Assembly: GCA_963662305.1 (NCBI GenBank)
Contig: OY759352.1
Location: forward strand, 349,035 to 413,034
Source: Desulfarculia bacterium
GTDB taxonomy: Bacteria > Desulfobacterota > Desulfarculia > G963662305
Direction of reading: 5' to 3'
DNA: 64,000 nucleotides
Below are positions 17,948-62,986 of this stretch, in pieces; the first letter of the stretch is position 1; each line of letters begins with the position of its first letter. Both the position numbers and the translations under genes were made by a program. Below the pieces are notes generated by a model. It ran no database searches. It saw nothing but the letters and a program-made list of their open reading frames with translations, and was not told the DNA's origin.

Positions 17948-18754
17948 TCAGAGCTCAAACACCTTGGCCCGGTAGGCCTGCAGGTATTTCATGCAGTAAT
18001 CGTCCCGGCCGTCCAAGGCCTCGGCGGCGATGATGGACGCCATCATCCGCTTGTCCAGAGGATTGATGATGGCTCCGTCCAGTCCCTTGGCCACGGCCAT
18101 GGTCATGAAGGTCTGGTTCATAAACTTGCGTTCCGGCAGACCGTAGGAGATGTTGGACAGGCCGCACATGGTGTGGATGCCCGGCCAGCCGGTCATGATC
18201 CGTTCCACCGCTTCCAGAAACTCCACTCCGAAACGGGTGTTGGTGGCCACCGGCTGGACCAGCGGATCTATGTAGATGTTTTCCAGAGCGACGTTGTTTT
18301 TGGTCAACCCCTCGACCAGCTTATCGGCGATCTCCATCCGCTGGTCGGCCGTCTCGGGCATGCCTTCGTCCGACATGCACAGAGCCACAACCTTCAGGTC
18401 AGTCCCGGCGACAACCGGCAGAAGCCGGTCCCAGCGATCTTTTTCCAGGGAGATGGAGTTGATCATGGGCCAGCCGTTCTTGTTGTCGTGAACGGCCAAG
18501 GCGGCTTCCAGGGCGGCAGGATCGGGGCTGTCCAGACAGCAGGGTATCTCCACCACCTCTTGAACCAGTTCCACCAGCCATTTAAGATACTCGGCCTCTT
18601 TATTTACAAATACGCCGGCGTTCACATCGATGTAGGTGGCTCCGGCTTCCGCCTGATCCTTGGCCACTTTTTCCAGGGCGGCCGTATCCTGGGCCTCTAT
18701 GGCCGCTGCTATGGCTTTGCGTGAAGCGTTTATTAACTCTCCGACAATTATCAT
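17948..18754 (-). CDS. Pterin-binding methyltransferase (MtrH/AcsE-like methyl-corrinoid:tetrahydrofolate methyltransferase)
   Basis: 268 aa; pterin-binding TIM-barrel (YIDVNAG...GWPMINSISLE...MCGLSNISYGLPER) typical of MtrH-like corrinoid:THF methyltransferases. Confidence 0.75.
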   Translation of the reverse strand: MIIVGELINASRKAIAAAIEAQDTAALEKVAKDQAEAGATYIDVNAGVFVNKEAEYLKWLVELVQEVVEIPCCLDSPDPAALEAALAVHDNKNGWPMINSISLEKDRWDRLLPVVAGTDLKVVALCMSDEGMPETADQRMEIADKLVEGLTKNNVALENIYIDPLVQPVATNTRFGVEFLEAVERIMTGWPGIHTMCGLSNISYGLPERKFMNQTFMTMAVAKGLDGAIINPLDKRMMASIIAAEALDGRDDYCMKYLQAYRAKVFEL

Positions 18755-46726: not shown

Positions 46727-48397
46727 TCATGGCGCCCCCTCCCCCGGTTTTACGCGCTCCAGGATCACCACCCGTCCATCCCCGCCCGGCAGCCACCGGG
46801 CAAAAGGGTATTCCTTGACTACCCGAAAGCCCTTTACCGGGCCGAAGGCTACCATGTACCTGTCATCCCTGACCCACCACCAACTCCTACCCGGCCGGGG
46901 TTTGCAGCGCCGATCGTAACCGTACCAGCCGTTGAACTCGAACCCGCCGTCGATCTCCTCCCAGGAAAGGCCCAGCTCTTGGGTGAGATGGTCCAGGGCC
47001 TTCCAGCGGGCCCTGTTCCAGGCCATATAATCGTGGCTCCCGGCCAAGCTCAAAAATCCCCAGAAAACCAGGTGAGCCAGAGCCAGACCGGTCAGGGCCT
47101 TTTTGCACGAGGCCGGCTCGATCCGCCACCTTGCCAGGGGCCGGATCAGGATAAGAACCGTCACGGGCAGAAGGTAGCGGTCGAACAAGACCGGGGCCGG
47201 AAGAAGAGCCAGCAGGTAGACCAGGGCGGTTAAGATGAAAAGGTCGGCCCGGCCCTTGAGGAGACCCTTGATCCAGCCGCCTATCTCCATGACCAGCAGG
47301 GCGCCCCCGGCCAGTGAGAACAGACTGATCAAGGCCCACCAACTCGGACCCAGGAGCGGATAGTTAGCCAGACCCAGGAGATGAACGTCGGCCAGGGTCA
47401 AGGGGCCGATCCCGGCCTTGACCAGGATGTTGCGGCCCAGGGGCATCAGGGTCGTCTGGATAAGAAAGGGGAGCGACAACAAGGCTGAAAACAGAGCCGC
47501 TTCGGCCAAGTATCGTTTCCGCTCCGCTCCGGGCCGGGCCGACCAGCGGACCGCCGTCCTCCAGGCCAGCAGGGGAAAGAGGAACAGGCCCAGATAGGTC
47601 AGGCAGATGGCGGCATTTTTTAGGAGCCTGAGCCCCAGAAGGCCCTCTCCCAGGCCGAGGAGAAGACCGGATTCCACCAGGCGGTACTCTTCCGGAAACC
47701 CCAGGTATCCCGCCGCAAAGAAAAGGTAGAGCCCCAGGGGCAGCACCGTGGCGGTCAGACCCCAACCCGCCAGGACAGCGGACCTGCGGCTGAAACCGTG
47801 TTGAAACAATATTGCAACGCCGAAAGCCGGGAGCACCGCCAAACCCAGCTGTCTGGTCAGGGTGGCCGCCCCGGCCAGAACCAGCCCCAGGGCCAGGGCG
47901 CGGCCGGATCCGAACTTCAGGCCCCGATCTAGGCAAAAGACCGCTCCGGCCAGCAAAACGGCAAAGGGCACGTCGGTCATGAAAGTGAGAGACAGGGGCA
48001 GGTGCAGGGGCGTAACCATAAGCACCAGGGCGGTCAGCAGCGCGGCGGGGCGGGGGGCCGAGTTGATCCTTTGAAACAGATAGACGCTCAGAATCAGAGC
48101 CCAGCCCGCAACGAGTCCGGAGAGCCGCAGGGCCTCAAAGGAAAAACCGCAGGGCAGACAGAACAGGGCGCCCCAGGCCAGGTGGACCAGCAGGGGCATG
48201 GAGGTCCAGCCGCCAATCTCCAGACGATTGTGCTGGATCAGATTTTGAACCGACCCGGCAAAGGACCAGCCGTCGTTCAAAGGGAAGCCGCCGCCCGGAC
48301 CGGCCAGCAGGATCAGCGCGGCCCACAGCCCGCTCAGCAAGGCCAACAGGGCCAGATCGGAGATATCGAGAGGCCTTTGGTTCGCCACGGACTTCAC
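46727..48397 (-). CDS. ArnT/PMT-like (GT39/GT83-type) polytopic membrane glycosyltransferase (putative)
   Basis: 556 aa; N-terminal polytopic region with FMTDVPFAVLLAG... resembling the dolichyl/undecaprenyl-phosphate-sugar-dependent GT-C family; C-terminal soluble domain. Confidence 0.5.
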   Translation of the reverse strand: MKSVANQRPLDISDLALLALLSGLWAALILLAGPGGGFPLNDGWSFAGSVQNLIQHNRLEIGGWTSMPLLVHLAWGALFCLPCGFSFEALRLSGLVAGWALILSVYLFQRINSAPRPAALLTALVLMVTPLHLPLSLTFMTDVPFAVLLAGAVFCLDRGLKFGSGRALALGLVLAGAATLTRQLGLAVLPAFGVAILFQHGFSRRSAVLAGWGLTATVLPLGLYLFFAAGYLGFPEEYRLVESGLLLGLGEGLLGLRLLKNAAICLTYLGLFLFPLLAWRTAVRWSARPGAERKRYLAEAALFSALLSLPFLIQTTLMPLGRNILVKAGIGPLTLADVHLLGLANYPLLGPSWWALISLFSLAGGALLVMEIGGWIKGLLKGRADLFILTALVYLLALLPAPVLFDRYLLPVTVLILIRPLARWRIEPASCKKALTGLALAHLVFWGFLSLAGSHDYMAWNRARWKALDHLTQELGLSWEEIDGGFEFNGWYGYDRRCKPRPGRSWWWVRDDRYMVAFGPVKGFRVVKEYPFARWLPGGDGRVVILERVKPGEGAP

Positions 48398-48508
48398 CCT
48401 CCGGGGCTGATTTATTCCTGTGGGTTCAGGGCTGACTGAGCGTATATTAGGGCCAGGATTATGTCAATTGAGGCGGGATTGTCCGGCCTTGGACAAAACA
48501 GGGGCAGC

Positions 48509-49480
48509 ATGAGCAGGATTCTGGTAACCGGAGGCAGCGGGTTCATCGGCTCCCACCTGGTGGAGGCCCTGATCGCCCAAGGCCACCAGGTGGCCTGCCT
48601 GTTGCGCCGGGAACAGGACCGAACCTGGATCAAGGGCCTGGACATAACCCCGGCAAGAGGTGATCTGTCCGACCCGGAGAGCCTGGGCCGGGCGGTCCGG
48701 AAGGCGGAGGCGATCTGTCATCTGGCCGGTGAGACCAAGGGGCCTAAATTCGACAGGATCAATGCCCGGGGTACGGCCAATCTGGTCTCGGCCGTCCAGA
48801 CCCATTGTCCCGGCTTGAAAAAACTGGTCTACCTCTCCTCCATGGCCGCCCAGGGTCCCGGGCCGGCAGGCAGGCCTCTGACCGAGGCCGACCCGGAGCG
48901 GCCCGTCTCGGCCTACGGCCGTTCAAAACTGGCCGGAGAGGCGGCTCTGGCCGCCCTGGAGCCGAACACGGAGGTGACCGTGCTCCGGCCGCCGGTGGTC
49001 TACGGACCCAGGGACGACAAGACTCTGGCCCTGGTCAGCCCGGCCCGGCGCGGGTTCCTGCCCCTGGTCCGAGGTCGGGCTCAGAGGATCAGCCTGCTTT
49101 ACGTGACCGATCTGGTCCAGGCCGTGCTTCTGGCCCTGGAAAAATCAGGCCCGGGCGGTAAATATCTCCTCTCCGACGGCGATATCCACAGAACCGCAGA
49201 CCTGGGCAAGATCCTGGGCGGGCTGCTCAAGGTCAGGGTCAGGGCCGTACCCCTGCCCCGGAGCCTGGTGGGCCTGGCCGCCCTGTTAAGCGACGGCTGG
49301 TCCTGCTTGAGCGGCTCCCCGTCCATCTTCGGCTGGGACAAATACCTGGAGCTGCGCCAACCCAACTGGAGCGCGGACTGCTCCGCGGCCAGGGAAAAAT
49401 TGGGGTTTTCGCCCCGATACCGGGCGGGGCAGGGGTTTGAAATTACCCTTAACTGGTATCGGAACAACGGCTGGATATAG
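48509..49480 (+). CDS. NAD-dependent epimerase/dehydratase (SDR family)
   Basis: MSRILVTGGSGFIGSHLV (GxxGxxG Rossmann) and extended-SDR fold; ORF track starts at 48461. Confidence 0.85.
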   Translation: MSRILVTGGSGFIGSHLVEALIAQGHQVACLLRREQDRTWIKGLDITPARGDLSDPESLGRAVRKAEAICHLAGETKGPKFDRINARGTANLVSAVQTHCPGLKKLVYLSSMAAQGPGPAGRPLTEADPERPVSAYGRSKLAGEAALAALEPNTEVTVLRPPVVYGPRDDKTLALVSPARRGFLPLVRGRAQRISLLYVTDLVQAVLLALEKSGPGGKYLLSDGDIHRTADLGKILGGLLKVRVRAVPLPRSLVGLAALLSDGWSCLSGSPSIFGWDKYLELRQPNWSADCSAAREKLGFSPRYRAGQGFEITLNWYRNNGWI

Positions 49481-49489
49481 CCACGCGGT

Positions 49490-50608
49490 CTACTTCATCA
49501 GGCCCAGATAGGCCTGCTCCAGCTGGCGCACCTTGTCCCTCAGGTTGAACGACTCCCTTATCCGGGCCGCCCCGGCCCGGCCCATCTCCGACCTCAAAAC
49601 CGGATCCAGGAGCAGCCGGGCCAGGCTGTGGGCCATCAAGGCGGGATCGTCCCTGGGGGCCAGGTAGCCGGTCCGCCCTTCCCGGACCAGTTCGGCGTTG
49701 CCGCCTACATCGGTCGCGACCACTGGCAACCCGGCGGCCATGGCCTCCATCACGGCCACGGGCATGCCTTCGTAGCAAGAGGCCAGGGCAAAGACATGGG
49801 CTTGGCTCAACAGAATCTCCACGTCCCGCCTGCAACCCAGAAAAGAGACCCGGTCGTCCAGGGAAAGGGCTGAGCAGAGCCGCCCGGCCTCGTTTTTCAG
49901 GGGCCCGTCACCCACCATCAGGAGGCGGAAATCGTGTCCCTCTTGCTTGAGCAGGGCCGCGGCCCGGATCAAACAGGCCGGGTCTTTTCTGTGTTCCAGA
50001 TGGGCCACGGAGATGATCACGGGCGGACCTTCTCCTTCCCCCGGAGCGGCACGGGGCAGATGGGGCCGGACTTCCAGGCCGTTGTGGATGACCGCCACCC
50101 TTTGCGGGCTCATGCCCTCGTCCCTGGTCATGACCAGCCGGCCGGCCTCGGTGTTGGAGATAAAAAGATCCACCCGTTTGTTGGTGACCCTCTCCACCAG
50201 GGCCTGCAAAAAAGACCGCCCTTCCCTGCCGCTGCGATGGGAGACGCTCCGCCGACCCGTGACCAGCAGGGGCGCACAACTCCCCCATTTGGCCAGGCGG
50301 GCCGTGAGGTCGCAGAAGGCTCCGAACCCGTGAACCAGGTGAAGCCCCCTCCCCGCCACCAGGCGCCTCAGGTTGCGGACCAGGATGGGCGCGCTCAGGT
50401 AGCGCCGGTCCTCGGGAATGTCCAGGTTGACCACCTCCAGGCCGGAGTCCTTGAACTCCCTGGTCAACCCGCGGGCCGGGGAGAGAAACAGGCAGACCAC
50501 CTCGAATCTGGTCCGGTCCAGCAGGGGATAGGTCAGAAGGCTCATCTTCTCCGTACCCCCCCTGGTGTATCCGCCCATGAGACAGCCTATCCTGATCCTG
50601 TTTTTCAT
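49490..50608 (-). CDS. Glycosyltransferase family 4 (GT-B)
   Basis: ...ASCYEGMPVAVMEAMAAGLPVVATDVGG...; internal Met MKNRIRIGCLMGG at 50608 abuts the asnB stop; the ORF track extends to 50692. Confidence 0.8.
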   Translation of the reverse strand: MKNRIRIGCLMGGYTRGGTEKMSLLTYPLLDRTRFEVVCLFLSPARGLTREFKDSGLEVVNLDIPEDRRYLSAPILVRNLRRLVAGRGLHLVHGFGAFCDLTARLAKWGSCAPLLVTGRRSVSHRSGREGRSFLQALVERVTNKRVDLFISNTEAGRLVMTRDEGMSPQRVAVIHNGLEVRPHLPRAAPGEGEGPPVIISVAHLEHRKDPACLIRAAALLKQEGHDFRLLMVGDGPLKNEAGRLCSALSLDDRVSFLGCRRDVEILLSQAHVFALASCYEGMPVAVMEAMAAGLPVVATDVGGNAELVREGRTGYLAPRDDPALMAHSLARLLLDPVLRSEMGRAGAARIRESFNLRDKVRQLEQAYLGLMK

Positions 50609-52569
50609 CGGCTCTCCAGCCAGGCTTGGAAGACCAGGACATTCCACAGGAGGTACTTCCAGTCGGCTTGGCCGGAGAGGTGCTCCTCCCATTTCCGGGC
50701 AACCGGCTCTGGACGCAAAAATCCCTCTCTGATAAGGCGTTCCGGGGCCAGCAGGTCCTGGGCCCAGTCCCGCAAGGGGCCCCTGAGCCAGCGCCCCAGC
50801 GGCACCCCGAAGCCCATCTTGGGCCGGTCGATCAGGGGTTCGGGGATGTATTTCCGCAGCACCTGTCTCAGGATGACCTTGGTCTTGCCTTTACTTATCA
50901 GCATCCTGTCCGGCAGCCTGGCCGCGAACTCCACCACCCGGTGGTCGATCAGGGGCACCCTGACCTCCAGGCCCACGCTCATGCTGGCCCGGTCGACCTT
51001 GACCAGAATGTCGTCCGGGTGGTAGGCCGCCAGGTCCAGATACCTCATCATGGTCAGGGGATTCTTAAACCGGGACAGCTCCAGGGGGTCCTCCATCACG
51101 CTCAAGGGCAGACCTGGACCGATGACCACCTCTTCGGGATTCTTCCAGTGGGCCAGAATCCCGGCGAATACCTGGGCCGGATTCTCGGAGGCCAGCACCC
51201 CCGCGCCTCGTTGGACCAGTTCTTCGGGGGACCTGTGGGCCAGCATCCGGGAACGCAACAGACCGGCCGCGGCCGGGAGCTTGGCCCACAACCCCTTGGG
51301 CAGGCCGGTGATCAGCCTGGCCGCCGCTCCTCGCAGGGGGCCGGGGATCAGCCGCAGCCTGGACCAGGCCTCCAGGGTGGCCGGGTAGCGGTCGTATCCG
51401 CCGAACAGCTCGTCCCCGCCGTCCCCGGACAGGGCCACTTTGACCCGTCTCCGGGCCAGGGCGGCCAGCAGCCGGGTGGGCAGCTGGGAGGAATCCGCAA
51501 AAGGCTCGTCAAAGATTCGGGGCAGATCCGGGATGACCTCCCTGGCCTCCCTGGAGGTGAGGTAGAGCTCGGTGTGGTCCGTGCCCAGGTGGGCGGCCAC
51601 CTCCCTGGCAAAAATCGCCTCGTTGTGAGTCTCCTCCCAGAAGCCGATGGTAAAGGTCTTGACCGGGCGGCTGGAGCGGGTCTGCATAAGGGCCGTGACC
51701 AGGCTGGAGTCCAGTCCGCCGGAGAGGAAAACCCCCAGCTCCACGTCGGCGATCATCCTGGCCTCAACCGCCCGGCCGAGGAATGATTCCAGTTCCGAGG
51801 CGGCCTGGTCCAGGCTGCCCTGATAGGGTTCCTTTAGACCTTGTTCCATCACCTTGGCCAGCGACCAGTAGGGCCGGGGCCGGGGCAGGTCGGACAGAGC
51901 GCCCGCTCCGGCCTTTGTCTCCATGGTGAGGGCGCAGCCGGCCGGCAGTTTGAAGATGCCCTTATAGATGGTGTGGGGAGCCGGGATATAGCCGTTTTTC
52001 AAGAACAGGGCCAGGGCCCCCCGGTCCACCTCCCCGGACCAGACCGGGTGGGCGGTCAGGGACTTCAGCTCCGAACCGAACAAAAACACCTGGCCGGAAA
52101 CGCCGTAGTAGATGGGCTTGAGACCCAGTCTATCCCGTACCAAATGCAGCCTTCGCTCCCTCCTGTCCCACAGGGCCAGGGCGAACATGCCCACGAAGCG
52201 CGGCAGAGAAGCCTCAAGCCCCCATTCCTCCACGCAGCCCAGGACCACCTCGGTGTCCGAGGTCCCCCGAAAGCGGTGGCCCAGTCCTTCCAGCTCATTT
52301 CTCAACTCCGGGAAATTGTAGACCTCGCCGTTGTAGGCCAGGACATACCGTCCCTGGGCCGAGACCATGGGCTGCCTTCCTTTTTCGGAAAGGTCCAGGA
52401 TGGACAGTCTGGTGTGGCCCAGGGCCAGGCCGGCCCTCTCGTCCGCCCAGGAGCCCCGGTCGTCCGGACCCCGGTGGGCCAGGGTCCGGGCCATGGCCTC
52501 CACCACCCCGGCCGGGGATTCCCGCCCCGCCCGGCCCAGGGGATCCCAGAACCCGGTCAGGCCGCACAT
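50605..52569 (-). CDS. asnB: Asparagine synthetase (glutamine-hydrolysing) family amidotransferase
   Basis: MCGLTGFWD (Ntn Cys2), SGGLDSS PP-loop, 654 aa. Confidence 0.88.
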   Translation of the reverse strand: MCGLTGFWDPLGRAGRESPAGVVEAMARTLAHRGPDDRGSWADERAGLALGHTRLSILDLSEKGRQPMVSAQGRYVLAYNGEVYNFPELRNELEGLGHRFRGTSDTEVVLGCVEEWGLEASLPRFVGMFALALWDRRERRLHLVRDRLGLKPIYYGVSGQVFLFGSELKSLTAHPVWSGEVDRGALALFLKNGYIPAPHTIYKGIFKLPAGCALTMETKAGAGALSDLPRPRPYWSLAKVMEQGLKEPYQGSLDQAASELESFLGRAVEARMIADVELGVFLSGGLDSSLVTALMQTRSSRPVKTFTIGFWEETHNEAIFAREVAAHLGTDHTELYLTSREAREVIPDLPRIFDEPFADSSQLPTRLLAALARRRVKVALSGDGGDELFGGYDRYPATLEAWSRLRLIPGPLRGAAARLITGLPKGLWAKLPAAAGLLRSRMLAHRSPEELVQRGAGVLASENPAQVFAGILAHWKNPEEVVIGPGLPLSVMEDPLELSRFKNPLTMMRYLDLAAYHPDDILVKVDRASMSVGLEVRVPLIDHRVVEFAARLPDRMLISKGKTKVILRQVLRKYIPEPLIDRPKMGFGVPLGRWLRGPLRDWAQDLLAPERLIREGFLRPEPVARKWEEHLSGQADWKYLLWNVLVFQAWLESR

Positions 52570-52609: not shown

Positions 52610-54136
52610 TCAGCCGTCGACCATCCCGGCCAGCTGTTCTTCCAGCCGCCGGATCACCCGGCCGTGATAGGCCATGTGGTGTCTCCCGCTGGCGGCCAGG
52701 GTCACGGCCATGGGAAAGACCCGGGGGTTGGCCAGAAGAGCCGCCCCAAGGTATTTCCAGAATTGGAGACGACCGGCATCGGCCAGCCCCATTTTCCAAA
52801 GAACCCTGAAAAAGGCCTTGATCTCCCCTGGTTTCAAGCGGTTTACAAAACAGGGATGGGCGGGCAACCGCTTGATATACTTCACAACCCGGTTGTAGTA
52901 GGCCGTTGGTTCGTACAATCTTTTCAGGGTCCAGCAATACCCGGCCAGGAGCGTCTGGGAGCCCATCAGGGGGATGTAATTCAAGGCGGCCACGTCTCCC
53001 ACTTGGTCGCCGGTTGGATAGCCCAGCAACCGTCCCTGGGCCTCCATGCGGTCCCAAAGACGGGTGTCGGGCGGCACGGATAGCAGCCCCACCATGGGAT
53101 AGGGGATGGGGCAGGCCTCGATAAAATCCACCATGGCCTGGAATGAAGATTCGTTATCCGCGTCAAACCCCAGGATGAATCCCCCCACCACCAGCATGCC
53201 CTTGTCCGTGATCCTTCTTACCGAGTCCACTATGTCCCGGTTGCGGTTCTGATTCTTGTGGCATTCCTCCAGGGAGGCGTCGGAGGGGGATTCTATCCCC
53301 AAAAACAGGGTCAGGAATCCGGCCCGGACCATCAGGTCCAGGAGTTCATCGTCGTCGGCCACATCCAGGCTGACCTGGACCGAGATCTTGTAGGGGTATT
53401 TGTGTTCCTTCTGCCAGGAGGCGATGGTTTCCAGGATGGGCTTCACCTTGCGCTTGTGGCCGATTATATTGTCGTCCACAATCATCAGCTCGCCCTCTTT
53501 CCACCCCGAGGCGTAAAGGGAATCCAGTTCGGCCTTCACCTGTGCGGCCGATTTGAGCCTGGGCCTCCGGCCGTTGAGGATGACCACGTGGCAGAAATCG
53601 CAATCGTTGGGACAACCCCGCCCCACCTGAAGAGGCATGGACAGATATTTTCCCCGGTCCACCAGGTCCCATCTGGGGATGGGGGTCTGGCCCAGTTCCG
53701 GAAATTTTTCGGCCCTGTAGACCGGTTGGGCCCTGCCCTGGGCCAGGTCTTCCAAAAACCGGGGCAGGGTCTCTTCCACCTCGCCCGCAAAAAGGTAATC
53801 GATCCGCTCGAACCCCTCCCTAATCAAGCTGAAATGGGGCCCTCCGGCAACCACGGGAACGCCTTTTTCATTGCATCTGCGGACGACCTCCCCGGCGGAT
53901 TTGGACTGGATCTCCATGGCCCCGACAAAAACCATCTCGGCCCAGTCCAGGTCTTTTTCCGGAAGCGGTTCCACGTTCAGGTCCACCATTTTGAGGGGCC
54001 ATTCCCGGGGCAGCATTCCGGCCACGGTCAAAAGCCCCAAGGGGGGCAGGAATATCTTGGCCGACAGGAATCCGGCGGTCCCCCGCAGAGACCAGAAAGT
54101 ATCAGGAAATTCGGGCTGGACAAACAGAGCTCTCAT
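52610..54136 (-). CDS. B12-binding domain-containing radical SAM protein
   Basis: N-terminal cobalamin-binding Rossmann-like region, radical-SAM cluster motif CPNDCDFC (CxxxCxxC), ~508 aa from MRALFVQPEF. Confidence 0.8.
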   Translation of the reverse strand: MRALFVQPEFPDTFWSLRGTAGFLSAKIFLPPLGLLTVAGMLPREWPLKMVDLNVEPLPEKDLDWAEMVFVGAMEIQSKSAGEVVRRCNEKGVPVVAGGPHFSLIREGFERIDYLFAGEVEETLPRFLEDLAQGRAQPVYRAEKFPELGQTPIPRWDLVDRGKYLSMPLQVGRGCPNDCDFCHVVILNGRRPRLKSAAQVKAELDSLYASGWKEGELMIVDDNIIGHKRKVKPILETIASWQKEHKYPYKISVQVSLDVADDDELLDLMVRAGFLTLFLGIESPSDASLEECHKNQNRNRDIVDSVRRITDKGMLVVGGFILGFDADNESSFQAMVDFIEACPIPYPMVGLLSVPPDTRLWDRMEAQGRLLGYPTGDQVGDVAALNYIPLMGSQTLLAGYCWTLKRLYEPTAYYNRVVKYIKRLPAHPCFVNRLKPGEIKAFFRVLWKMGLADAGRLQFWKYLGAALLANPRVFPMAVTLAASGRHHMAYHGRVIRRLEEQLAGMVDG

Positions 54137-54324: not shown

Positions 54325-55488
54325 ATGACTCCGGAAAATTTATTTTACCTTATCATCGGGGTCACAAGTTTGGGACTGCTGGTCTACTGCGCCGGGGTCT
54401 CGCACTACCAGGCCAAGGTTAACGGGCCTTCGAGGGAAGCCCGGGCTCGGCCTCCCGTCTCAATCATTCTGCCTCTCACCGGCGACTCTCCCCTTCTTGA
54501 ACCGGGCCTGGAATCCATTCTGGCCCAGGACTATCCAAGCCTGGAGCTGATTCTGGCGGTGGAGGACGAGGCAGACCCGGCCTGGCCCCTGGTACTGGGC
54601 ATGGCCGCCAAAGACTCCAGGGTGGTGCCGGTAACGGCCGGCCGGGCCGATACCTGCGGCCAGAAAAACAAAAATCTCCTGGCCGGGCTGGAGCGGATCA
54701 GCCCCGAGTCTGAAATAGTGGTCTTCACCGACGCCGAGCACCTGGCTGAAAAGGATTTCATCACCGACCTGGTGGCTCCCATCATCCGGGGCGAGGCGGC
54801 CGTCTCGTCGGGATATCACCATTACCTTCCCCGGGAGGGCGGCCTGGCCGGCTCGGCCAAAGCCGTCTGCGTGCAGCTTCTAAACCTCACCAGGACAATT
54901 CCCTTCCTGAACAGACCCTGGGGAGGGGCCACGGCCGTGGCCAGACAGGCTCTGAACGGCCTGGACCTGATCTCCCTGTGGTCCTTTACCGTGGTCGATG
55001 ACGTTACCCTGGCCCGCCGCAGAGGCGGCAGGTCCCGGTTTCCCCTCCGGCTTGTGGCGCCCAAGCTTAGCACCCCGGATCAGGGAGACGACCTGGCCGC
55101 CTGGAACCGCTGGCTGACCCGGCAGATCGCCTTTATAAAACCGTCCATCGTCAACGACTGGCTGGGCCTGGGCGTTATCGCCTTGGGGTTGAATCTGGCC
55201 TTTTTTGCCTCGCTGTTGGCCCTGGTCCGGTGGCCGATCACGGGGGGAGGGGCCTGGCCGGCCACGGCGGGGCTGATCTTTTTCCTGGTCTTTTTCTGGA
55301 GTTGTGCACAGGTCAGAAAGCACCATCCCCGGCCCGGCCACTTGGGTTACTGGTGGGCCGGGTGCGTGGCGGCCATGATCATGGGGTTGTGGTGCTTTAT
55401 CAAAACCTGTTTCAGCAACCGGATCAGCTGGCGAGGCAAGACCTACCAGGTCGGTTGGGGCGGACGGGTGAAAAAAATAATCCGCTGA
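54325..55488 (+). CDS. GT2-superfamily membrane glycosyltransferase, ceramide-glucosyltransferase-like (GT21-type architecture; putative)
   Basis: N-terminal TM helix, GT-A core (PVSIILPLTGDSP...TDAEH...VVDDV) and 3-4 C-terminal TM helices, as in ceramide glucosyltransferase/HpnI-like enzymes. Confidence 0.55.
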   Translation: MTPENLFYLIIGVTSLGLLVYCAGVSHYQAKVNGPSREARARPPVSIILPLTGDSPLLEPGLESILAQDYPSLELILAVEDEADPAWPLVLGMAAKDSRVVPVTAGRADTCGQKNKNLLAGLERISPESEIVVFTDAEHLAEKDFITDLVAPIIRGEAAVSSGYHHYLPREGGLAGSAKAVCVQLLNLTRTIPFLNRPWGGATAVARQALNGLDLISLWSFTVVDDVTLARRRGGRSRFPLRLVAPKLSTPDQGDDLAAWNRWLTRQIAFIKPSIVNDWLGLGVIALGLNLAFFASLLALVRWPITGGGAWPATAGLIFFLVFFWSCAQVRKHHPRPGHLGYWWAGCVAAMIMGLWCFIKTCFSNRISWRGKTYQVGWGGRVKKIIR

Positions 55489-55585
55489 AGACAAAACCGG
55501 AATCGCCCACCCCGCGGCAGGGCATCGGATATGGCAGCAAAAAACGGCGACTGCCCTCGCGGCAGGCCGCAGGGAATTAAACCCC

Positions 55586-56092
55586 CTAAATCTCGAACCG
55601 GGATCTGGTCTTCCTGGTCCATAAAATAATCGCCCCAAATCCGCATAGGGCGATGCAGAAAGATACGGCTCCGGCTTTGAGAACCCAAAATTTTGGCAAA
55701 AGCTCGACCCGGACCACGTATCTCCTTTTGTTGAACCGGGGGTCGGTGTTGTCCGAGGCGGAAAAGATCAGCTTCCCCTTCCAGTGGGAGTAGCGCCCCC
55801 GCCCTTTTCTGGCCACATCCACATGCAGGCTGTGGGCCGGACCAAGTTCTTTGCCGTCCTCCAAGAGAACCAGGGACGATCTCCGGGGATCATCCATGTC
55901 GTCCGTCTCAATCCTCCAATAAGGCGACCGGGGCACATCCCACTGGTGGGAGAACAGCCTGAGCCCGCCCATAAACAGGGGCTTCACATAGACAGTTCTG
56001 CTTTGGGGGAAAAACCGGAGATACCAGGGCGCAGCCCCGCCCAGGAGGAGGATGAGGCAGCCCACAAGAGCCAGGCGGGTTGGGTTTTTCAT
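55586..56092 (-). CDS. Hypothetical membrane-anchored protein
   Basis: 169 aa from MKNPTRLALVGCLILLLGG (N-terminal TM/signal) with a C-terminal TM; the ORF-track N-terminal extension is unlikely. Confidence 0.4.
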   Translation of the reverse strand: MKNPTRLALVGCLILLLGGAAPWYLRFFPQSRTVYVKPLFMGGLRLFSHQWDVPRSPYWRIETDDMDDPRRSSLVLLEDGKELGPAHSLHVDVARKGRGRYSHWKGKLIFSASDNTDPRFNKRRYVVRVELLPKFWVLKAGAVSFCIALCGFGAIILWTRKTRSRFEI

Positions 56093-56293
56093 GGGTCCCC
56101 TTTTCCCTTCGGGGCCGGGTTGGGTCCCATCCGGTCCGGCCCCGATGTTCTTGGGCGGTCTTATATCATTTTTCAGACAATCCGCCCAGATCCGAATCTC
56201 ACCCTCGGCTTGGGCGGACCAGACCGGCAGCATAATGCCATCGGGAGAAGACCGGCCTGTATTTCGATCTTGGATTTTGATATAACAGGCCAC

Positions 56294-57526
56294 ATGTTAT
56301 TGCCAAAGGGAGTCGCCGTGCCGGACAAGGGATTTAACCCGGAACTCGATCTTTTCCGAAAATGCTACCAGTACACCGAGGACCTGGAGGCCAGGGAGGG
56401 CGGTTACTATCTTATTTTCCGCCCTCTTGAATCCGGCCAGAACCCCGTGGTCACCCTGGAGGGCCGGGAGATGATCAACCTGGCCTCCAACAACTATCTG
56501 GGGCTGACTTCCCATCCCCGGGTGGTGGAGGCGGCCAAGGAGGCCCTGGACCGATACGGCACCGGCTGCTCCGGTTCCCGCTGGCTCAACGGCAACATGT
56601 TGATCCACGAGGAACTGGAAAGCCTTCTGGCCGAGTTTTTGGGAAAAGAGGCGGCCATTGTTTTCTCCACCGGGTACCAGACCAACCTGGGGGCCATCTC
56701 CTGCCTGGTGGGCAGGAACGATGTAATCTTCACGGACAAATTGGACCACGCCTCCATAATCGACGGGGCCAGGATGAGCCTGGGCCGGCTGATCCGGTTC
56801 CGGCATAACGACATGGACCATTTGGAGGGCCTGCTCAAAAGGGAACAGGACAAAGGCAAGCTGATCGTGGTGGACGGCGTCTTTTCCATGGAGGGCGACC
56901 TGGCCGACCTGCCTGGTCTGGTGGACCTGGCCCGGAGATACCAGGCCCGGATTTTTCTGGACGACGCCCACGGCCTGGGGGTGACCGGTCCGGGCGGCAG
57001 GGGCACGGCCGCCCATTTCGGCCTGGCCGAGGAGGTGGACCTGATCATGGGCACCTTTTCCAAAAGCCTGGCCTGTATCGGAGGGTTTGTGGCCGGGGAC
57101 GCCCGCCCCGTCTCCTGGATCAAGCACCGGAGCCGCTCCCAGATGTTCTCGGCGGCCCTGCCCCCGGTTCTCACGGCCACGGCCAGGGCCGCCCTGGAGA
57201 CGGTCATCAGGGAACCGGAACTGGTGGACCGGCTGTGGACCAACGCCCGGAAACTCAAAGAGGGCCTCATCGCCCTGGGGTTTGACACCGGCGGCTCCCA
57301 AACACCCATCGTGCCGGTGATCCTGGGCAACGAGCCCCTCATGCTGGCCACGACCATCAATCTGGCCCAGGCCGGGGTGTTCGTGAACCCGGTCCGGCCG
57401 CCGGCGGTGCCCCAGGGCCGGGAGATGCTGCGGCTCTCCCTCATGGCCAACCACACCGGAGAGCATATCGACCAGGCCCTTGCGGCCCTGGGCGAGGCGG
57501 GTCGTAATCTGGGGATCATTTCCTGA
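56294..57526 (+). CDS. Serine palmitoyltransferase / 8-amino-7-oxononanoate synthase-family PLP-dependent alpha-oxoamine synthase
   Basis: ...MINLASNNYLGL...GSRWLNG...GTFSKSL (PLP-Lys) motifs of the AOS family; 410 aa from MLLPKGV. The ORF-track entry from 55784 is a 5' extension. Confidence 0.8.
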   Translation: MLLPKGVAVPDKGFNPELDLFRKCYQYTEDLEAREGGYYLIFRPLESGQNPVVTLEGREMINLASNNYLGLTSHPRVVEAAKEALDRYGTGCSGSRWLNGNMLIHEELESLLAEFLGKEAAIVFSTGYQTNLGAISCLVGRNDVIFTDKLDHASIIDGARMSLGRLIRFRHNDMDHLEGLLKREQDKGKLIVVDGVFSMEGDLADLPGLVDLARRYQARIFLDDAHGLGVTGPGGRGTAAHFGLAEEVDLIMGTFSKSLACIGGFVAGDARPVSWIKHRSRSQMFSAALPPVLTATARAALETVIREPELVDRLWTNARKLKEGLIALGFDTGGSQTPIVPVILGNEPLMLATTINLAQAGVFVNPVRPPAVPQGREMLRLSLMANHTGEHIDQALAALGEAGRNLGIIS

Positions 57527-57591: not shown

Positions 57592-58809
57592 TCAGTAGCC
57601 CATCAGGCCGCAACATCTGGTACAGACCGGCATAAGCCCATCCCTGGCCAGGCTGAGCCGGAATTTCCGGTAGGGCTCTGAATTCCAGAGCACGGTCAGG
57701 GATGTTTCTTTTATGTTCCCCACCACATAATCGTGATAATCGCGGCAGGGCGAGACCTTGCCGTCAGGGCCGATCTCGGCGGCCTGATAGATGGATAGAC
57801 AACGGCTGTAGCCGAAATCGTTGCCGTGGTCGTTATAGTAAGACCGCAAGTCTTCCGCTTCGAAAATGGGGGGAATAACGATCGCGGCCGGGTCGGACCA
57901 GCCTTTTGAAGCGGAGCGCAGGGACTTGAGCTGGTCCGCGATGAGATGGTGGTCCACGGCCCGCCAGTCGCCGATCCATCCCCCGGGCAGGGCGGGCTCG
58001 AACCCGAACCTGCGGTTGAAATCCAGCCGGTGGGCCTCCACTCCGGGTTCATCAATCCACCAGGACAGGTAAAAGACGAACAGGTCCACCCGGTCCTTGA
58101 AGGTCCGGTATATGTCCGTCAGGTAGGCCACGTTTTCCTTGGAAATAACGGTCAGGGAGGCGATGAGGGGCAGGCTTCCGCCCCGGTCCCTCCTGGCCCG
58201 GAGCAGGCTCTCCAGCCCCCTCTCCAGGGTGGCGAAGTTGTCGCCCCGGCCGGCCGAGGGGCGGAGCCGGTTGTGCAGCCCGGCGGTGGGTCCGTCAACG
58301 GATATCTGGGCCAGAAACAGGGGCGCCCCGGCCAGCGCCCCGGCCGCGTCGGCCAGCCCGGTGCCGTTGGTGGCCAGGGAGGTGGGCAGCCCCAGCCGGG
58401 TAGACCTTTCCACGAGTTCCACCAGGTCGGGATATAAAAAAGGCTCTCCACCCCAAAGGTAGTACAGGGGCCTCCAGCCCCGGGAGGCCAGGTCCCCCAG
58501 AACCTCCAGATGCCCCTTCAGATCCACCTCCTGCTCTCCCACGCGTCCTGCGGGCAGATGGCGCAGATATCCGCGCTCCCCCCACTGGCCGCAGGTCCGG
58601 CAGCGGAGATTGCATCTTTCGGTGATCCTGACGCTGAGCTGACGGATGGGCCCGGCCCGGCCTCCGGATAATTTGGCGGGACGTTGGGCAAGAAGCCATT
58701 TCCCGGCCTGGAGCAGGGCCAGTTTTTTGAATATCCAGGGATGGCGTATCAGGGGCGGGACGCCCTTGACGATCGCCTTGGGTCCGACACTGGGTTTTTT
58801 CCCGCTCAT
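57592..58809 (-). CDS. Radical SAM / SPASM-domain protein (anSME-like maturase)
   Basis: CNLRCRTC (CxxxCxxC), WGGEP, and a C-terminal Cys-rich SPASM region ending ...CTRCCGLMGY. Confidence 0.75.
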   Translation of the reverse strand: MSGKKPSVGPKAIVKGVPPLIRHPWIFKKLALLQAGKWLLAQRPAKLSGGRAGPIRQLSVRITERCNLRCRTCGQWGERGYLRHLPAGRVGEQEVDLKGHLEVLGDLASRGWRPLYYLWGGEPFLYPDLVELVERSTRLGLPTSLATNGTGLADAAGALAGAPLFLAQISVDGPTAGLHNRLRPSAGRGDNFATLERGLESLLRARRDRGGSLPLIASLTVISKENVAYLTDIYRTFKDRVDLFVFYLSWWIDEPGVEAHRLDFNRRFGFEPALPGGWIGDWRAVDHHLIADQLKSLRSASKGWSDPAAIVIPPIFEAEDLRSYYNDHGNDFGYSRCLSIYQAAEIGPDGKVSPCRDYHDYVVGNIKETSLTVLWNSEPYRKFRLSLARDGLMPVCTRCCGLMGY

Positions 58810-58948: not shown

Positions 58949-60223
58949 TTAGATTATTTCGATGGTCTCGGTCCTGATGTTGGACAGGTTGCCTTCCGCG
59001 TCCATGAGCCAGTAGTTGATGGTGTGCACCCCGGACTCCAGGCCGCCGATGAAGGAGGTGGGCAGGGTCCGGCGGAAGTCCACCAGATTGACCTGATAAT
59101 TGTAGCTGAGTCCGGTCTGCCAGGCGATTCCGTTGCTCAGAGTTCCGCTGCTGTCCAGGGCCAGCTGCTCGGGCCCGTCCTTGCCAGCGGAACCGGGCCT
59201 GATCCATTCCACCACCAGGGCCGACGCACCGGTGTAGGCGGCGGAGAAAGGCAGGGTCCTGTTCAACTGGTAGGCGGTTCCGTTCACCCTGGCGTTGTTG
59301 ATTTCGGCCGAGACCTGCTGGTTGCCCAAAAGCCTGCTGTAGGGTCCCCCGCCGCCAAAGTGATCCTCTGCGCCGCCGCCGTCTCCCCGGGGGTCCACCT
59401 GCCAGCCGGTCCCGACTACGTTAAGTTCGCCTATCTCAGGAAGAACGATCTTGGCCGTGCCCTTGTTGGGAGAGGTTATGGAACCCGCCAGCTGATAGTC
59501 GATCGCCCCTGCGGCATTCAGGTGATAGGCGTCTATGCTTATCTCGCCGCCCTCACCGCCGGCCAGTCCCTGGAAGTGGTAATTGGCCTGGGAATCATCC
59601 GGACCATAAATCTTCAACAGTCCATTGAAGTTTCCTCGTCCGGTATAGGTCCAATCAAGCCATACGGTGTAATCCGGGCGGGATGGATCGGTATAGGACC
59701 ACCACCTGGCCACATTGTCCATGGTGGACATGGCCCTTGCGCCCACAAGCGCATTTTCCGAAATCCAACCCAGGATGGGGGCGTCGGCCCGGGACTGATT
59801 GGAGATGTAGATGGCGTTGTTGTAATACTCGATGGCATAGGAGCCGTCCGGCTGGAGGTAATAGGCTTGGGGAAAATCGTTGCGGGTCTCGTCGTACAGT
59901 CGCAGTACTCCATCCTGGAATTCGGCCCTGAAATTTACCTGCCACAGGCCCAGGGAGAGCTGCCAGGTGGAAGTTATCCCCTTTGGTACAGTGAAAGTCA
60001 ACAACCCGGCGTCATCGGCCAGGTAGGAGGCCGTCTCCGCTCCGGCCTGGACGGCCATAGCTGCCGCCGGGGGATACCACAGCTTGCCGTGGGCATAGGT
60101 GGTCACCTGAAGTTTAAAGGTCAGGGTTTCCTGGGCCAGGGCCTCGCCCGAAGCCAGCAACCCCATCAGCGCCACCCCCACAATAAGGCTGATGAATGTT
60201 GTTTTGGATATTTTACTAACCAT
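58949..60223 (-). CDS. Secreted hypothetical protein (signal peptide; Gly-rich beta-rich)
   Basis: MVSKISKTTFISLIVGVALMGLLASGEALAQE signal peptide; 424 aa; no recognisable family. Confidence 0.5.
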   Translation of the reverse strand: MVSKISKTTFISLIVGVALMGLLASGEALAQETLTFKLQVTTYAHGKLWYPPAAAMAVQAGAETASYLADDAGLLTFTVPKGITSTWQLSLGLWQVNFRAEFQDGVLRLYDETRNDFPQAYYLQPDGSYAIEYYNNAIYISNQSRADAPILGWISENALVGARAMSTMDNVARWWSYTDPSRPDYTVWLDWTYTGRGNFNGLLKIYGPDDSQANYHFQGLAGGEGGEISIDAYHLNAAGAIDYQLAGSITSPNKGTAKIVLPEIGELNVVGTGWQVDPRGDGGGAEDHFGGGGPYSRLLGNQQVSAEINNARVNGTAYQLNRTLPFSAAYTGASALVVEWIRPGSAGKDGPEQLALDSSGTLSNGIAWQTGLSYNYQVNLVDFRRTLPTSFIGGLESGVHTINYWLMDAEGNLSNIRTETIEII

Positions 60224-60839: not shown

Positions 60840-61691
60840 ATGGAGAACAGAAGGCGGCCGGGAGGCAAATTGTCCACACGGGATCTGATGCGCGTCTTTG
60901 GGACGATCCGGGATTACCGGGAGCTGATTACGGGGCTGGCAGCCAGGGAGATCCGGGAGAAGTACGTCCAGTCCATGGCCGGCCTGCTGTGGCTGTTCAT
61001 CTACCCGGCCTGCCTCCTGTCGGTCTATCTGGTCGTCTTCGGTTTTGTTTTTAAAATGCGGGCCGACATGCTGGGGCTGGATCTCAATATGAGCTATACC
61101 GCCTACCTTATCACCGGGTACATCCCCTGGCTGGGCGCGGCCGAAAGCCTGACCAGGGCGCCCCTGGCCGTCTCCTCCAATTCGGCCCTGATCAGGCAGG
61201 TGGTCTTTCCCCTGGAAATTCTGCCGGTCAAGCTGGTCCTGGTCTCCCTGACCCCCCAGCTGGTCCTCCTGGTTTTGGCCTCGGTCTATCTTCTTCTCGA
61301 CTCCGGAGGCCGCGTCCCGAATCTTCTGTGGCTGACCCTGCCCCTCCTTTTTTTCCTGGAATTCATGCTCCTCTGCGGGCTGGTCTGGGCCATCTCCGCA
61401 GTTGGGGTCTTTTTGGGCGACATCAAGGAGGTCGTCAAACTGGCCGTGCTGGTCGGGCCTTTTTTGGCTCCGATTTTCTTTTCCCCCAGCCAGCTGCCGG
61501 CCTGGGCCGGAGGTCTGATCCACCTCAACCCCTTCACCCTGCTGATCAACTGTTTCCGGGACGCTCTGCTGTACGGCAGGGTGGCCCACCCTCTTAGCTG
61601 GCTGTTCGTCGGCCCCCTCTGCCTGGCCTGTTTCTGGGCTGGATACGGGGTCTTTAAACGCCTTCGGCCGGGCTTCGGCAACCTGCTATGA
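60840..61691 (+). CDS. ABC-2 type polysaccharide/O-antigen export permease (Wzm/KpsM-like)
   Basis: 6 TM helices, ABC2_membrane signature; ATG at 60840 (the ORF-track upstream extension is Gly/Arg-rich). Confidence 0.8.
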   Translation: MENRRRPGGKLSTRDLMRVFGTIRDYRELITGLAAREIREKYVQSMAGLLWLFIYPACLLSVYLVVFGFVFKMRADMLGLDLNMSYTAYLITGYIPWLGAAESLTRAPLAVSSNSALIRQVVFPLEILPVKLVLVSLTPQLVLLVLASVYLLLDSGGRVPNLLWLTLPLLFFLEFMLLCGLVWAISAVGVFLGDIKEVVKLAVLVGPFLAPIFFSPSQLPAWAGGLIHLNPFTLLINCFRDALLYGRVAHPLSWLFVGPLCLACFWAGYGVFKRLRPGFGNLL

Positions 61692-62986
61692 CCAGACCGA
61701 CGCACAAGCCGTCCGCTCCGGCCATCCAGGTCCGTGGCCTGACCAAAACCTTCAAGGTCTACGACGGCCCTCTGGACGTTTTCAGGGAGCATGTTCTTAA
61801 AAAGCCCAGCCACCAGCTTTTCACCGCCCTCGAGGGGGTCTCCTTCAGTTTGGAACCGGGAGAGGTGCTGGGGGTGATCGGGCCCAACGGCGCCGGGAAA
61901 AGCACTCTCCTGCGCATTCTTGCCGGCACCCTGGACAGGACTGCGGGCGAAATCCTTATCTCGGGCAAGGTCTCTTCCATTCTGGAACTGGGGACCGGGT
62001 TTCATCCTGATTTCAGCGGCCGGGAGAACGTCTATCTGGCCGGCCTGTGTCACGGCATGAAAGCCGCCGAGGTCAGAGCCAAGATACCCTGGATAAAGGA
62101 GTTCAGCGCCCTGGGCGACTTTTTCGAAAAGCCGGTGCGGACCTACTCTTCGGGCATGCAGGCCCGGCTGTTTTTCAGCGCCGCAGCGGCGGTGGAGGCG
62201 GATATCCTTTTGGTGGACGAGGCCCTGTCCGTGGGCGACGCCAGGTTTCAGCGGAAATGTTTCGCCCGCATGGAACGCTTCCGCGATAAGGGGGGAGCGG
62301 TGATCCTGGTCTCCCACGACATCAACCTGGTGATGGGGCTTTGCGACAAGGCCCTTCTTCTGGAAAAGGGCCGGGTAATCAGCCGGGGCCCTTCCCGGGA
62401 TGTGTCCCGCATCTATTTCAGAAGGGTCCACTCCGGACAGGAAAACCGGGTGGGTGAGTTGGAACCTCCGGCTTCAGGAGAAAAGCCGTTGATCCCGGCC
62501 GGCTCAGAACGGTACGGCAACGGCCGGGCCGAAATCGTGGACTACGGCCTCAAGGACCACCACGGCAGGATGACCGAAACCATTACCTCCGGCCAGCAAT
62601 GTCACCTGTTCATAAAGGCACTCCTGCACCAGGACATAGAAGACCTGCGTTTCAGTTACATCATCAGCACTGTGTCCGGGATAAACGTGTTCGGCTTCAA
62701 CACCGCCGACCATCCGGCTCCGGGGCCCCTGGTCAAAGACGCTGTTCTGGAGGCGCGGTTGAAACTGCGGATGTGGCTGGCGCCGGGAGAATACTTCCTC
62801 ACCTTCGGCATCTGGCCCAAGGACGGGCCCCATTACGACCGTCTGATCGACGCCCTGCTTCTGCGGGTCGTCAGCGAGAAATATATCGCCCCAGGAAGCC
62901 TGGTCAATCTGGAACCCGAGCTGGAGTTGGTGCGGGTCGGAAAAACCGACTCCGGGGCCGGAGAAGATTCCGGGGGTCGGGCCTGA
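61688..62986 (+). CDS. ABC transporter ATP-binding protein (Wzt/KpsT-like) with C-terminal substrate-binding-type extension
   Basis: Walker A GPNGAGKST, signature SSGMQARL, Walker B ILLVDEAL; ~190-aa extra C-terminal domain, as in Wzt O-antigen-binding domains. Confidence 0.85.
   Translation: MTRPTHKPSAPAIQVRGLTKTFKVYDGPLDVFREHVLKKPSHQLFTALEGVSFSLEPGEVLGVIGPNGAGKSTLLRILAGTLDRTAGEILISGKVSSILELGTGFHPDFSGRENVYLAGLCHGMKAAEVRAKIPWIKEFSALGDFFEKPVRTYSSGMQARLFFSAAAAVEADILLVDEALSVGDARFQRKCFARMERFRDKGGAVILVSHDINLVMGLCDKALLLEKGRVISRGPSRDVSRIYFRRVHSGQENRVGELEPPASGEKPLIPAGSERYGNGRAEIVDYGLKDHHGRMTETITSGQQCHLFIKALLHQDIEDLRFSYIISTVSGINVFGFNTADHPAPGPLVKDAVLEARLKLRMWLAPGEYFLTFGIWPKDGPHYDRLIDALLLRVVSEKYIAPGSLVNLEPELELVRVGKTDSGAGEDSGGRA

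Follow-up and report, generated by a model that had tools for sequence, protein, structure and literature searches.

Does this anaerobe make a glycosylated sphingolipid? The question is raised by three neighboring genes on contig OY759352.1 of a Desulfarculia bacterium (assembly GCA_963662305.1), which we analyzed within a stretch of 64,000 nucleotides, referred to here as the window and numbered from its first letter. The genes encode a membrane-embedded lipid glycosyltransferase (GT) resembling family GT21 (54325-55488, plus strand, 387 amino acids), a small bitopic membrane protein (55586-56092, minus strand), and an alpha-oxoamine synthase (AOS) that depends on pyridoxal 5'-phosphate (PLP) and resembles serine palmitoyltransferase (SPT, or Spt; 56318-57526, plus strand, 402 amino acids, GTG start). 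All three open reading frames (ORFs) are intact at these coordinates. As had been predicted, the AOS gene lies about 0.8 kb downstream of the GT gene and divergently from the small gene: we measured 829 bp from the GT stop to the AOS start, and 225 bp of spacer between the divergent genes. The predicted AOS stop at 57526 was right, while the true start is the GTG at 56318, behind a GGGAG ribosome-binding site; the small protein is a membrane protein as described, with N- and C-terminal transmembrane segments (residues 5-27 and 135-160 by hydropathy), and has 168 rather than 169 residues when counted from the ATG that aligns with the starts of its homologues. We consider a glycosphingolipid-type envelope lipid to be the best explanation of the module, and one that somewhat outweighs its alternatives taken together. 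The original prediction of such a lipid is therefore upheld with moderate confidence, based on the phylogenetic tree of the AOS, the SPT model that fits it best, a CerR-like reductase, the GT21-like enzyme and the recurrent linkage of these genes.

The AOS is identical over 402 amino acids to a database protein (P0001) and matches Pfam family PF00155 with an E value of 4.5e-62. It had been credited with all motifs of the SPT/AONS family, and the full PLP motif set is indeed present: H144 (HASIIDG), D215/D216-H218 (DDAHG), K249 (GTFSKS), GSRWLNG and RPPAVP, with K249, H144, D216 and H218 aligning with residues of S. multivorum SPT. The best NCBIfam model was SerpalmtaseCFB, the Bacteroidota-type SPT, with 490.7 bits (compared to 411 for TIGR01825, 406 for bioF and 389 for Kbl), and the best PDB match was S. 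multivorum SPT with 414 bits, ahead of Thermus BioF/KBL (341), Kbl (289), cysteate acyltransferases (263-275) and BioF (at most 234). Identity amounted to 50% with S. multivorum SPT, 49% with an M. xanthus homologue that lies within a cluster of AOS, GNAT and short-chain dehydrogenase/reductase (SDR) genes, 44% with Thermus BioF/KBL, 38% with Kbl and 31% with BioF; the best value in the reference-genome collection, which does not include this lineage, was 55%.

We then compared these sequences in a neighbour-joining tree (390 columns, 100 bootstraps) that contained the AOS of 80 reference-genome loci, database matches and three PDB sequences, together with a few outgroups (E. coli BioF, E. coli and Coxiella Kbl, and Thermus BioF/KBL). 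The window AOS grouped with S. multivorum SPT and with the Bacteroidales and Myxococcus sequences, in a clade that all 100 bootstraps set apart from BioF, Kbl and Thermus BioF/KBL. HemA, CqsA, SulA and alpha-proteobacterial Spt gave lower scores with the AOS than SPT did in the PDB and NCBIfam searches, and bioA, bioB, bioC, bioD and tdh were not found among the window ORFs scanned. Thus, the grouping with BioF or Kbl, or the partnership with biotin or tdh genes, that the original prediction had named as the contrary outcome was not seen, and we reject a BioF or Kbl identity for this enzyme on the basis of profile scores, PDB scores, tree and gene context. It would condense serine, by default, with a long-chain acyl thioester, alanine or another amino acid being possible.

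Bacterial ceramide synthesis has been described for an arrangement of genes encoding Spt, the bacterial ceramide synthase (bCerS) and the ceramide reductase (CerR) (PMC11324152, PMC11087976, PMC11334938), and in Myxococcus and many other genomes we observed a gene for a homologous AOS followed by one for a GNAT of about 375 amino acids and then one for an extended SDR. The window gene at 48479-49480 (plus strand), 7 kb upstream of the AOS gene, encodes an extended SDR of the 'epimerase' family (PF01370, E value 2e-37) that is CerR-like in sequence and a putative 3-keto reductase. End to end, it shares 44% identity with the SDR of the AOS-GNAT-SDR triad of locus L003, and it shares 33-37% with the SDRs of Myxococcus triads (the best of three SDR queries); a match with NDUFA9 (62 bits) takes in almost the whole protein, and CerR has been reported as an NDUFA9 homologue (PMC11087976). 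The comparison with CerR was made by way of the triad SDRs and NDUFA9. The closest outgroup loci, L003 and L175 (AOS identity 60-68%), have the order AOS-GNAT(-SDR), and L174 (AOS identity 64%), which is syntenic with the window between 41 and 57 kb, brings together GNAT, GT4a, GT4b, flippase, two GT-C-like proteins, AOS and SDR.

The GT aligns over its full length with HpnI (TIGR03472; 76 bits, E value 2e-21), and its best PDB match by sequence is the human ceramide glucosyltransferase UGCG (31 bits, E value 9e-7). In the alignment with UGCG, D84 corresponds to D92 and D136 to the aspartate of the 'CDS' motif, and a C-terminal ISWRG..Y..GG is common to both proteins. For UGCG, the residue numbers D144, D236 and W276 follow Marks et al. 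2001. Invariant in 27 homologues of the window enzyme are D84, CGQKN, D136, PWGGA, D225/D226, W263, R266 and Q267; in the (Q/R)xxRW region it is the Arg before the Trp that varies, R266 and Q267 following it. An AlphaFold (AF2) model of high confidence (pLDDT 92.3, pTM 0.90) shows a helix at residues 3-32, a GT-A core at 45-251, four helices at 257-362 and C-terminal hairpins, in agreement with hydropathy, and the nearest solved folds are membrane-embedded GT2 synthases (TM-score 0.6-0.66). Since the alignment with HpnI and UGCG, the invariant motifs and the confident model agree, the predicted GT21-like architecture (N-terminal transmembrane helix, GT-A core and C-terminal transmembrane bundle) is confirmed. 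GT2 and GT21 enzymes are inverting, and by analogy the same would be expected here. This small subfamily comprises 29 clusters (90% identity), most of them from Desulfovibrionales-like organisms.

The acceptor of this enzyme is addressed by the company that its homologues keep. We examined the neighborhoods of 7 database homologues of the GT, as well as 80 metagenome loci that the family alignment had retrieved, and counted neighbors in the 32 metagenome GT21 loci with a length of 12 kb or more. The most constant partner, also present in the window, was a radical SAM/SPASM enzyme (21 of 32 loci), followed by a zinc-dependent alcohol dehydrogenase (Zn-ADH; 10), an Spt-like AOS (8), a bCerS-like GNAT (4) and a CerR-like SDR (3). 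If each genome is taken to have one or two AOS genes, a rough estimate is that about 1% of neighborhoods of 20 kb would contain one by chance; the loci are not all independent. In genomes and metagenomes taken together, six gene orders place GT21 homologues by homologues of the sphingolipid pathway. Besides that of the window, these are AOS-ZnADH-rSPASM-GT4-GT21 (where rSPASM is the radical SAM/SPASM gene), with the variant AOS..GT21-B12rSAM-GNAT in L115; rSPASM-AOS-GT21-GNAT-SDR (L166); GT21-B12rSAM-GNAT-SDR-AOS (L154); GNAT-GT21-SDR, in contiguous operons (L008, L125, L157); and GT21-flippase-AOS (L093). At least three separate Spt-like subclades are represented among the AOS genes of GT21 loci. 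An Spt-like AOS, a reductase and a GT21 enzyme thus recur together in other anaerobes, and therefore probably make a sugar-bearing, sphingolipid-type membrane lipid. This recurrent linkage to Spt-, bCerS- and CerR-like genes is indirect evidence that the GT may use a ceramide or a sphingoid base as acceptor.

Two further arrangements were noted among the related loci. In Desulfovibrionales-type loci (L091 4756-7338, L096, L130, L133, L167 and L144), the AOS gene adjoins that of a Zn-ADH of about 404 amino acids that shares 26% identity with E. coli Tdh; this arrangement resembles kbl-tdh, but the adjacent AOS is in the Spt-like clade, and the Zn-ADH may take the place of the SDR as ketoreductase. 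In two distant loci, L005 (9000-21182) and L008 (395-13975), Spt-like or GT21/bCerS-like/SDR genes adjoin a gene for a PfaA-like polyketide or polyunsaturated fatty acid synthase (about 2,600 amino acids), with genes for a phosphopantetheinyl transferase, an acyl carrier protein (ACP), a ketoacyl synthase (KAS) and a PAP2_3 protein nearby, which hints at acyl chains supplied by the polyketide synthase and at a branch leading to a phospho-head group.

In the window, the core genes are part of a locus of about 25 kb (about 39-64 kb) that we think serves, on balance, a glycosylated lipid of sphingolipid type in the cell envelope. The radical SAM/SPASM enzyme (57592-58809, minus strand; PF04055 and PF13186) is 49% identical to its homologue in L006 and 54% to that in L091, has further homologues in L096, L144, L166 and other loci, and finds its best PDB relative in the cytosylglucuronate decarboxylase BlsE (40 bits). 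A B12-binding radical SAM protein with DUF4070 is encoded divergently from the GT21 gene (52610-54136, minus strand; PF02310, PF04055 and PF13282), and homologues with 35% identity adjoin GT21 in L154 and L115. It is followed by an AsnB-type glutamine amidotransferase (50605-52569, minus strand), above the cut-off of the asn_synth_AEB model with 466 bits and below that of the XrtA-type amidotransferase model (576 against 817 bits), whose homologues occur near GT21 in L008, L093, L144, L152, L162 and L164, and by GT4c (49490-50608, minus strand; PF00534, E value 7e-39), conserved in L002 with 59% identity.

Farther upstream are a Wzx-like flippase rich in transmembrane segments (41207-42625, plus strand), GT4a (42637-43737, minus strand) and GT4b (43730-45127, minus strand), all three with Pfam matches, and two tandem GT-C/PMT_2-like proteins of about 555 amino acids with multiple transmembrane segments (45021-46688 and 46727-48397, both minus strand; PMT_2 match in one). 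In L174, homologues of these five genes keep their order and stand next to genes for an AOS, an SDR and a bCerS-like GNAT, and GT4a homologues also lie between the radical SAM/SPASM and GT21 genes in L006, L096 and L144. Because both GT-C homologues stand beside AOS, SDR and GNAT in L174, periplasmic glycosylation of the GT-C type may join the pathway. On the other side of the core, a 424-residue signal-anchored protein with no assigned function (58949-60223, minus strand; N-terminal hydrophobic segment 5-31) and a Wzm/Wzt-type ABC exporter (60870-61691 and 61688-62986, both plus strand; ABC2_membrane, ABC_tran and Wzt_C domains) are conserved in L002 and L007. An Rfam scan of 38-64 kb gave no match.

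The locus had also been described as containing sulfotransferase and sulfatase genes. Both families were found, at 14 kb (sulfotransferase, 39125-40234; PF13469, E value 2e-32) and 5.5 kb (sulfatase family, from 62983 on the plus strand to beyond position 64000, where it runs off the window; PF00884, E value 1e-42) from the core genes, but the 'sulfatase' does not carry the canonical C/S-x-P-x-R and has S-I-P-S-Q in its place. Going by this motif, it is probably not a formylglycine sulfatase, and may be a phospho- or sulfo-transferase-like enzyme of the alkaline-phosphatase fold. For this reason a role of the radical SAM/SPASM enzyme as anaerobic sulfatase maturase (anSME) is unlikely; its anSME match reaches only about 23-39 bits, and it travels with GT21 and not with sulfatases.

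A pathway can be proposed from the protein family placement, the intact catalytic motifs and the recurrent linkage reported above; its substrates, the order of its steps, the sugar and the final structure are those that such enzymes would suggest. The AOS, with PLP bound to K249, would join a small amino acid to a long-chain acyl thioester to give a 3-keto long-chain base, whose keto group would be reduced by the CerR-like SDR. The base would then be N-acylated, probably by a bCerS-like GNAT encoded outside the locus, if present. The GT21-like enzyme, held at the cytoplasmic face by its N-terminal helix and C-terminal helical bundle, would transfer the first sugar from a nucleotide sugar onto the primary hydroxyl of the lipid, and GT4 enzymes would lengthen the head group, which would be altered in turn by the radical SAM/SPASM enzyme (weakly similar to BlsE), the B12-radical SAM protein and the AsnB-type amidotransferase. 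The Wzx-like flippase or the Wzm/Wzt exporter would carry the product outward. A more far-reaching proposal is that sulfate-reducer-type anaerobes possess a dedicated glycosphingolipid pathway, with the first sugar added by GT21 to a bacterial ceramide or long-chain base, remodelling of that sugar to a new head group by an obligatory radical SAM/SPASM partner together with B12-radical SAM and AsnB-type enzymes, and, in the lineage of the window, an LPS-like glycan that is anchored on a sphingoid instead of lipid A and exported by Wzm/Wzt or the flippase; we put this forward tentatively, and consider it doubtful in its full form.

Several observations weigh against a glycosphingolipid. The AOS stays under all three curated SPT cut-offs (NF047600, 490.7 versus 640 bits; NF047599, 383 versus 500; NF047603, 322 versus 670), as do, with 495-549 bits, its relatives in AOS-GNAT-SDR or SDR-AOS clusters under the SPT cut-off; the tree that places it is distance-based, with few outgroups, and left out SulA, CqsA, HemA and alpha-proteobacterial Spt. 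For the GT, the HpnI score is far from the cut-off (76 versus 310 bits), and PF13506, which is listed in the precomputed annotations of all 29 GT homologues, reached 15.8 bits against a cut-off of 21.7 in our own scan. Of the ceramide partners whose search the original prediction had called for, the window yielded the CerR-like SDR and not the acyltransferase: a six-frame search of the 64 kb with a profile hidden Markov model built from 62 GNATs (234-491 bits in control loci) detected no bCerS-like GNAT, the best E value being 4.7, and the same profile detected none in the syntenic loci L001, L002 and L007. No gene for an ACP or acyl-ACP synthetase was found in the locus; the source contigs were not among the best 120 GNAT matches of the database search, a result that does not bear either way on a bCerS gene elsewhere in the genome. 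Lastly, 18 of the 32 metagenome GT21 loci, as well as that of Solidesulfovibrio fructosivorans (L006), have no AOS, GNAT or SDR gene within 10 kb, and none of the 80 reference-genome loci with an Spt-like AOS has a GT21 gene near it, so that the AOS-GT21 pairing is not general.

Some of these observations would be accommodated if GT21, radical SAM/SPASM and GT4 enzymes glycosylated another lipid, such as diacylglycerol (DAG) as in Pgt or a hopanepolyol as in HpnI, while the AOS made a separate sphingoid; the B12-radical SAM protein would then correspond in function to HpnJ, and the SDR to HpnA. The loci in which the GT21/radical SAM-SPASM/GT4 core occurs without ceramide genes fit this view, as does the preference of Pgt for DAG over ceramide (PMC3972451); HpnI, HpnJ and HpnA are the best NCBIfam names of three genes of the locus, and a deacetylase-like gene that recalls HpnK lies beside GT21 in five loci. 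We consider this explanation unlikely, since the scores behind those names are far under their cut-offs (in addition to HpnI, 54 versus 578 bits for HpnJ and 120 versus 368 for HpnA), squalene-hopene cyclase and hpnH were seen in none of the gene tables, orthologues of the SDR lie in Spt-bCerS-SDR triads, and six independent gene orders set GT21 directly by Spt-, bCerS- or CerR-like genes. It is still less probable, in our estimation, that the AOS takes alanine (giving a 1-deoxy base), cysteate (capnine or sulfonolipid) or glycine and builds from it a sphingoid-like amino lipid, left unacylated or acylated in an unusual manner. Such a product would account for the missing bCerS and for the sulfur-related genes of the locus, among them the sulfotransferase, and would suit an AOS that falls under the SPT equivalog cut-off and has cysteate acyltransferases as detectable relatives; in addition, 1-deoxy- and sulfono-1-deoxy-ceramides of the Black Sea correlate with Desulfobacterota (PMC11334938). 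Against it stand the gap between SPT and the best cysteate acyltransferase (414 versus 275 bits), the bCerS-like GNATs of sister loci, and the structure of a 1-deoxy base, which offers no C1 hydroxyl for glycosylation by a GT21-type enzyme and fits poorly with the linkage to GT21.

A third alternative is that the AOS is an ordinary BioF or Kbl of biotin synthesis or threonine catabolism, placed by chance in a polysaccharide locus. Its bioF and Kbl scores (406 and 389 bits) are modestly under the respective cut-offs of 426 and 460, JGI pipelines label many of its relatives '8-amino-7-oxononanoate synthase', and in the Desulfovibrionales-type loci the arrangement with Zn-ADH is kbl-tdh-like. Nevertheless, the bootstrap separation, the higher identity with SPT than with Kbl or BioF, the lack of bio and tdh genes among the window ORFs scanned, and the low identity of that Zn-ADH with Tdh next to an AOS of the Spt-like clade make this explanation highly improbable. 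A glycosylated sphingolipid remains the reading that we prefer.

The small membrane protein was originally described as flanked by the two enzymes of the module. We rejected it as a core component: orthologues were found solely in L002 and L007 (51% identity), the remaining GT21 loci having none, and its domain recurs widely as an accessory of envelope enzymes. The protein has no match in Pfam or NCBIfam, and its middle part of about 60 residues is an unnamed, beta-rich domain (consensus EDGxxLGPAHSLHxDIxxxGxGRFSHW..FSTSDNTDPxxNGRxY) with no Pfam model and no significant fold match in the PDB. This domain occurs in 3290 representative proteins, often repeated (at most 6 copies each) and fused to GT4, Sulfatase, PMT or DUF4838; it opens a 642-residue GT4 protein just past the end of the window and is also encoded in L001 at 18533-18703. 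The small protein is thus a lineage-specific accessory from the glycan side of the locus, not a feature that defines the module. The divergent intergenic region (56093-56317) between its gene and that of the AOS contains a block, CCTGTATT..GATTTTGgTATAA, about 35 nt before the AOS start, which is promoter-like in sequence and, with a GGAG ribosome-binding site, is conserved in the window, L002, L007 and L094. A GC-rich inverted repeat of 17 pairs (56109-56145), a potential hairpin, adjoins the start of the small gene.

The envelope locus starts at about 39.1 kb, and the preceding part of the window (1-38900) is unrelated to it, with genes of anaerobic catabolism that include two aldehyde:ferredoxin oxidoreductases, an MttB-family methyltransferase, dimethylglycine/sarcosine-oxidase-like enzymes, a hydantoinase, an indolepyruvate-type oxidoreductase and a Liv-type ABC transporter. 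In this part, a single ORF (3696-4904, plus strand) directly upstream of PtsI (4913-6676) joins an RsmI-like TP_methylase domain to a PTS HPr domain, an unusual fusion unless it is a sequencing artefact.

Sphingolipid synthesis had been thought to be restricted to a few bacterial lineages, an argument from rarity that is outdated because Spt-like genes have been predicted in about 40 phyla, including Desulfobacterota (Ding 2024; PMC11334938). Spt-like genes in Desulfobacterota had thus already been predicted, and bacterial GT21 enzymes are known for DAG (Pgt) and for hopanoids. We found no published description of a conserved module of GT21, radical SAM/SPASM, Spt and CerR, sometimes with bCerS. 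The named bacterial ceramide glycosyltransferases come from a few aerobes and from gut Bacteroides, and those of B. fragilis and Z. mobilis are GT4 enzymes (PMC9692976); in the locus and its relatives, which belong to anaerobes, the Spt/CerR(/bCerS) set is tied to an enzyme of the GT21 type as well as to radical SAM enzymes. If our reading is true, these would be candidate genes for unassigned glycosylated or otherwise modified ceramides of anoxic waters and sediments, the GT would offer a bacterial relative of UGCG tractable for structure-function work, and it could be tested whether radical SAM enzymes remodel the head group of a glycolipid, in analogy to HpnI/J/K in hopanoids. The GT21 subfamily, the radical SAM/SPASM enzyme and the Spt-like AOS would together also form a marker set for metagenome mining.

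The known system closest to the first steps is the ceramide pathway of Caulobacter, Myxococcus and Bacteroidota (Olea-Ozuna 2021 and Stankeviciute 2022, as described in PMC11324152, PMC11087976 and PMC11334938). The window shares with it an Spt-like AOS of the soluble homodimer type that has every PLP motif, from a clade that has members in AOS-GNAT-SDR clusters, and an NDUFA9-like SDR in the same locus. It differs in that the locus has no bCerS-like GNAT, AcpR or AasR, that the AOS scores under the curated SPT cut-offs, and that the genes are spread over a glycan locus of 25 kb that also encodes radical SAM enzymes, in an anaerobe that its best named matches place, with probability, among the Thermodesulfobacteriota. 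As for the first sugar, GT21 enzymes that have been characterized act on hydroxyls of membrane lipids, Agrobacterium Pgt taking both DAG and ceramide (PMC3972451). The window GT has in common with UGCG, the Agrobacterium and Mesorhizobium Pgt and HpnI the N-terminal transmembrane helix, the GT-A domain and the C-terminal helical bundle, as well as the D1, D2 and D3 aspartates and the Trp of (Q/R)xxRW. It is very distant from them, as its scores with UGCG and the HpnI model indicate, and forms a separate small subfamily that is almost always accompanied by radical SAM/SPASM.

Among the bacterial ceramide glycosyltransferases, the alpha-galactosylceramide synthase BF9343_3149 of B. fragilis and the glucuronic acid transferase of Z. 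mobilis, both GT4, and Sgt1/Sgt2 of Caulobacter (PMC9692976), the role is the one that we propose here, namely addition of the first sugar to ceramide, followed by extension. The B. fragilis and Z. mobilis enzymes are soluble or peripheral, retaining and of the GT-B fold, whereas the window GT has a GT-A fold and is embedded in the membrane. Finally, the HpnI-HpnK-HpnJ system for the cyclitol ether of bacteriohopanetetrol likewise sets a GT21-type enzyme beside a B12-radical SAM protein with DUF4070 and an HpnA-like SDR, and the deacetylase-like gene of some sister loci adds to the likeness. The window differs from it in widely missing the Hpn cut-offs, in showing no hopanoid core genes, and in having an Spt-like enzyme, not squalene-hopene cyclase, form the lipid. 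The comparison nonetheless suggests an analogous logic, in which a lipid would be glycosylated and its sugar then remodelled by radical chemistry.

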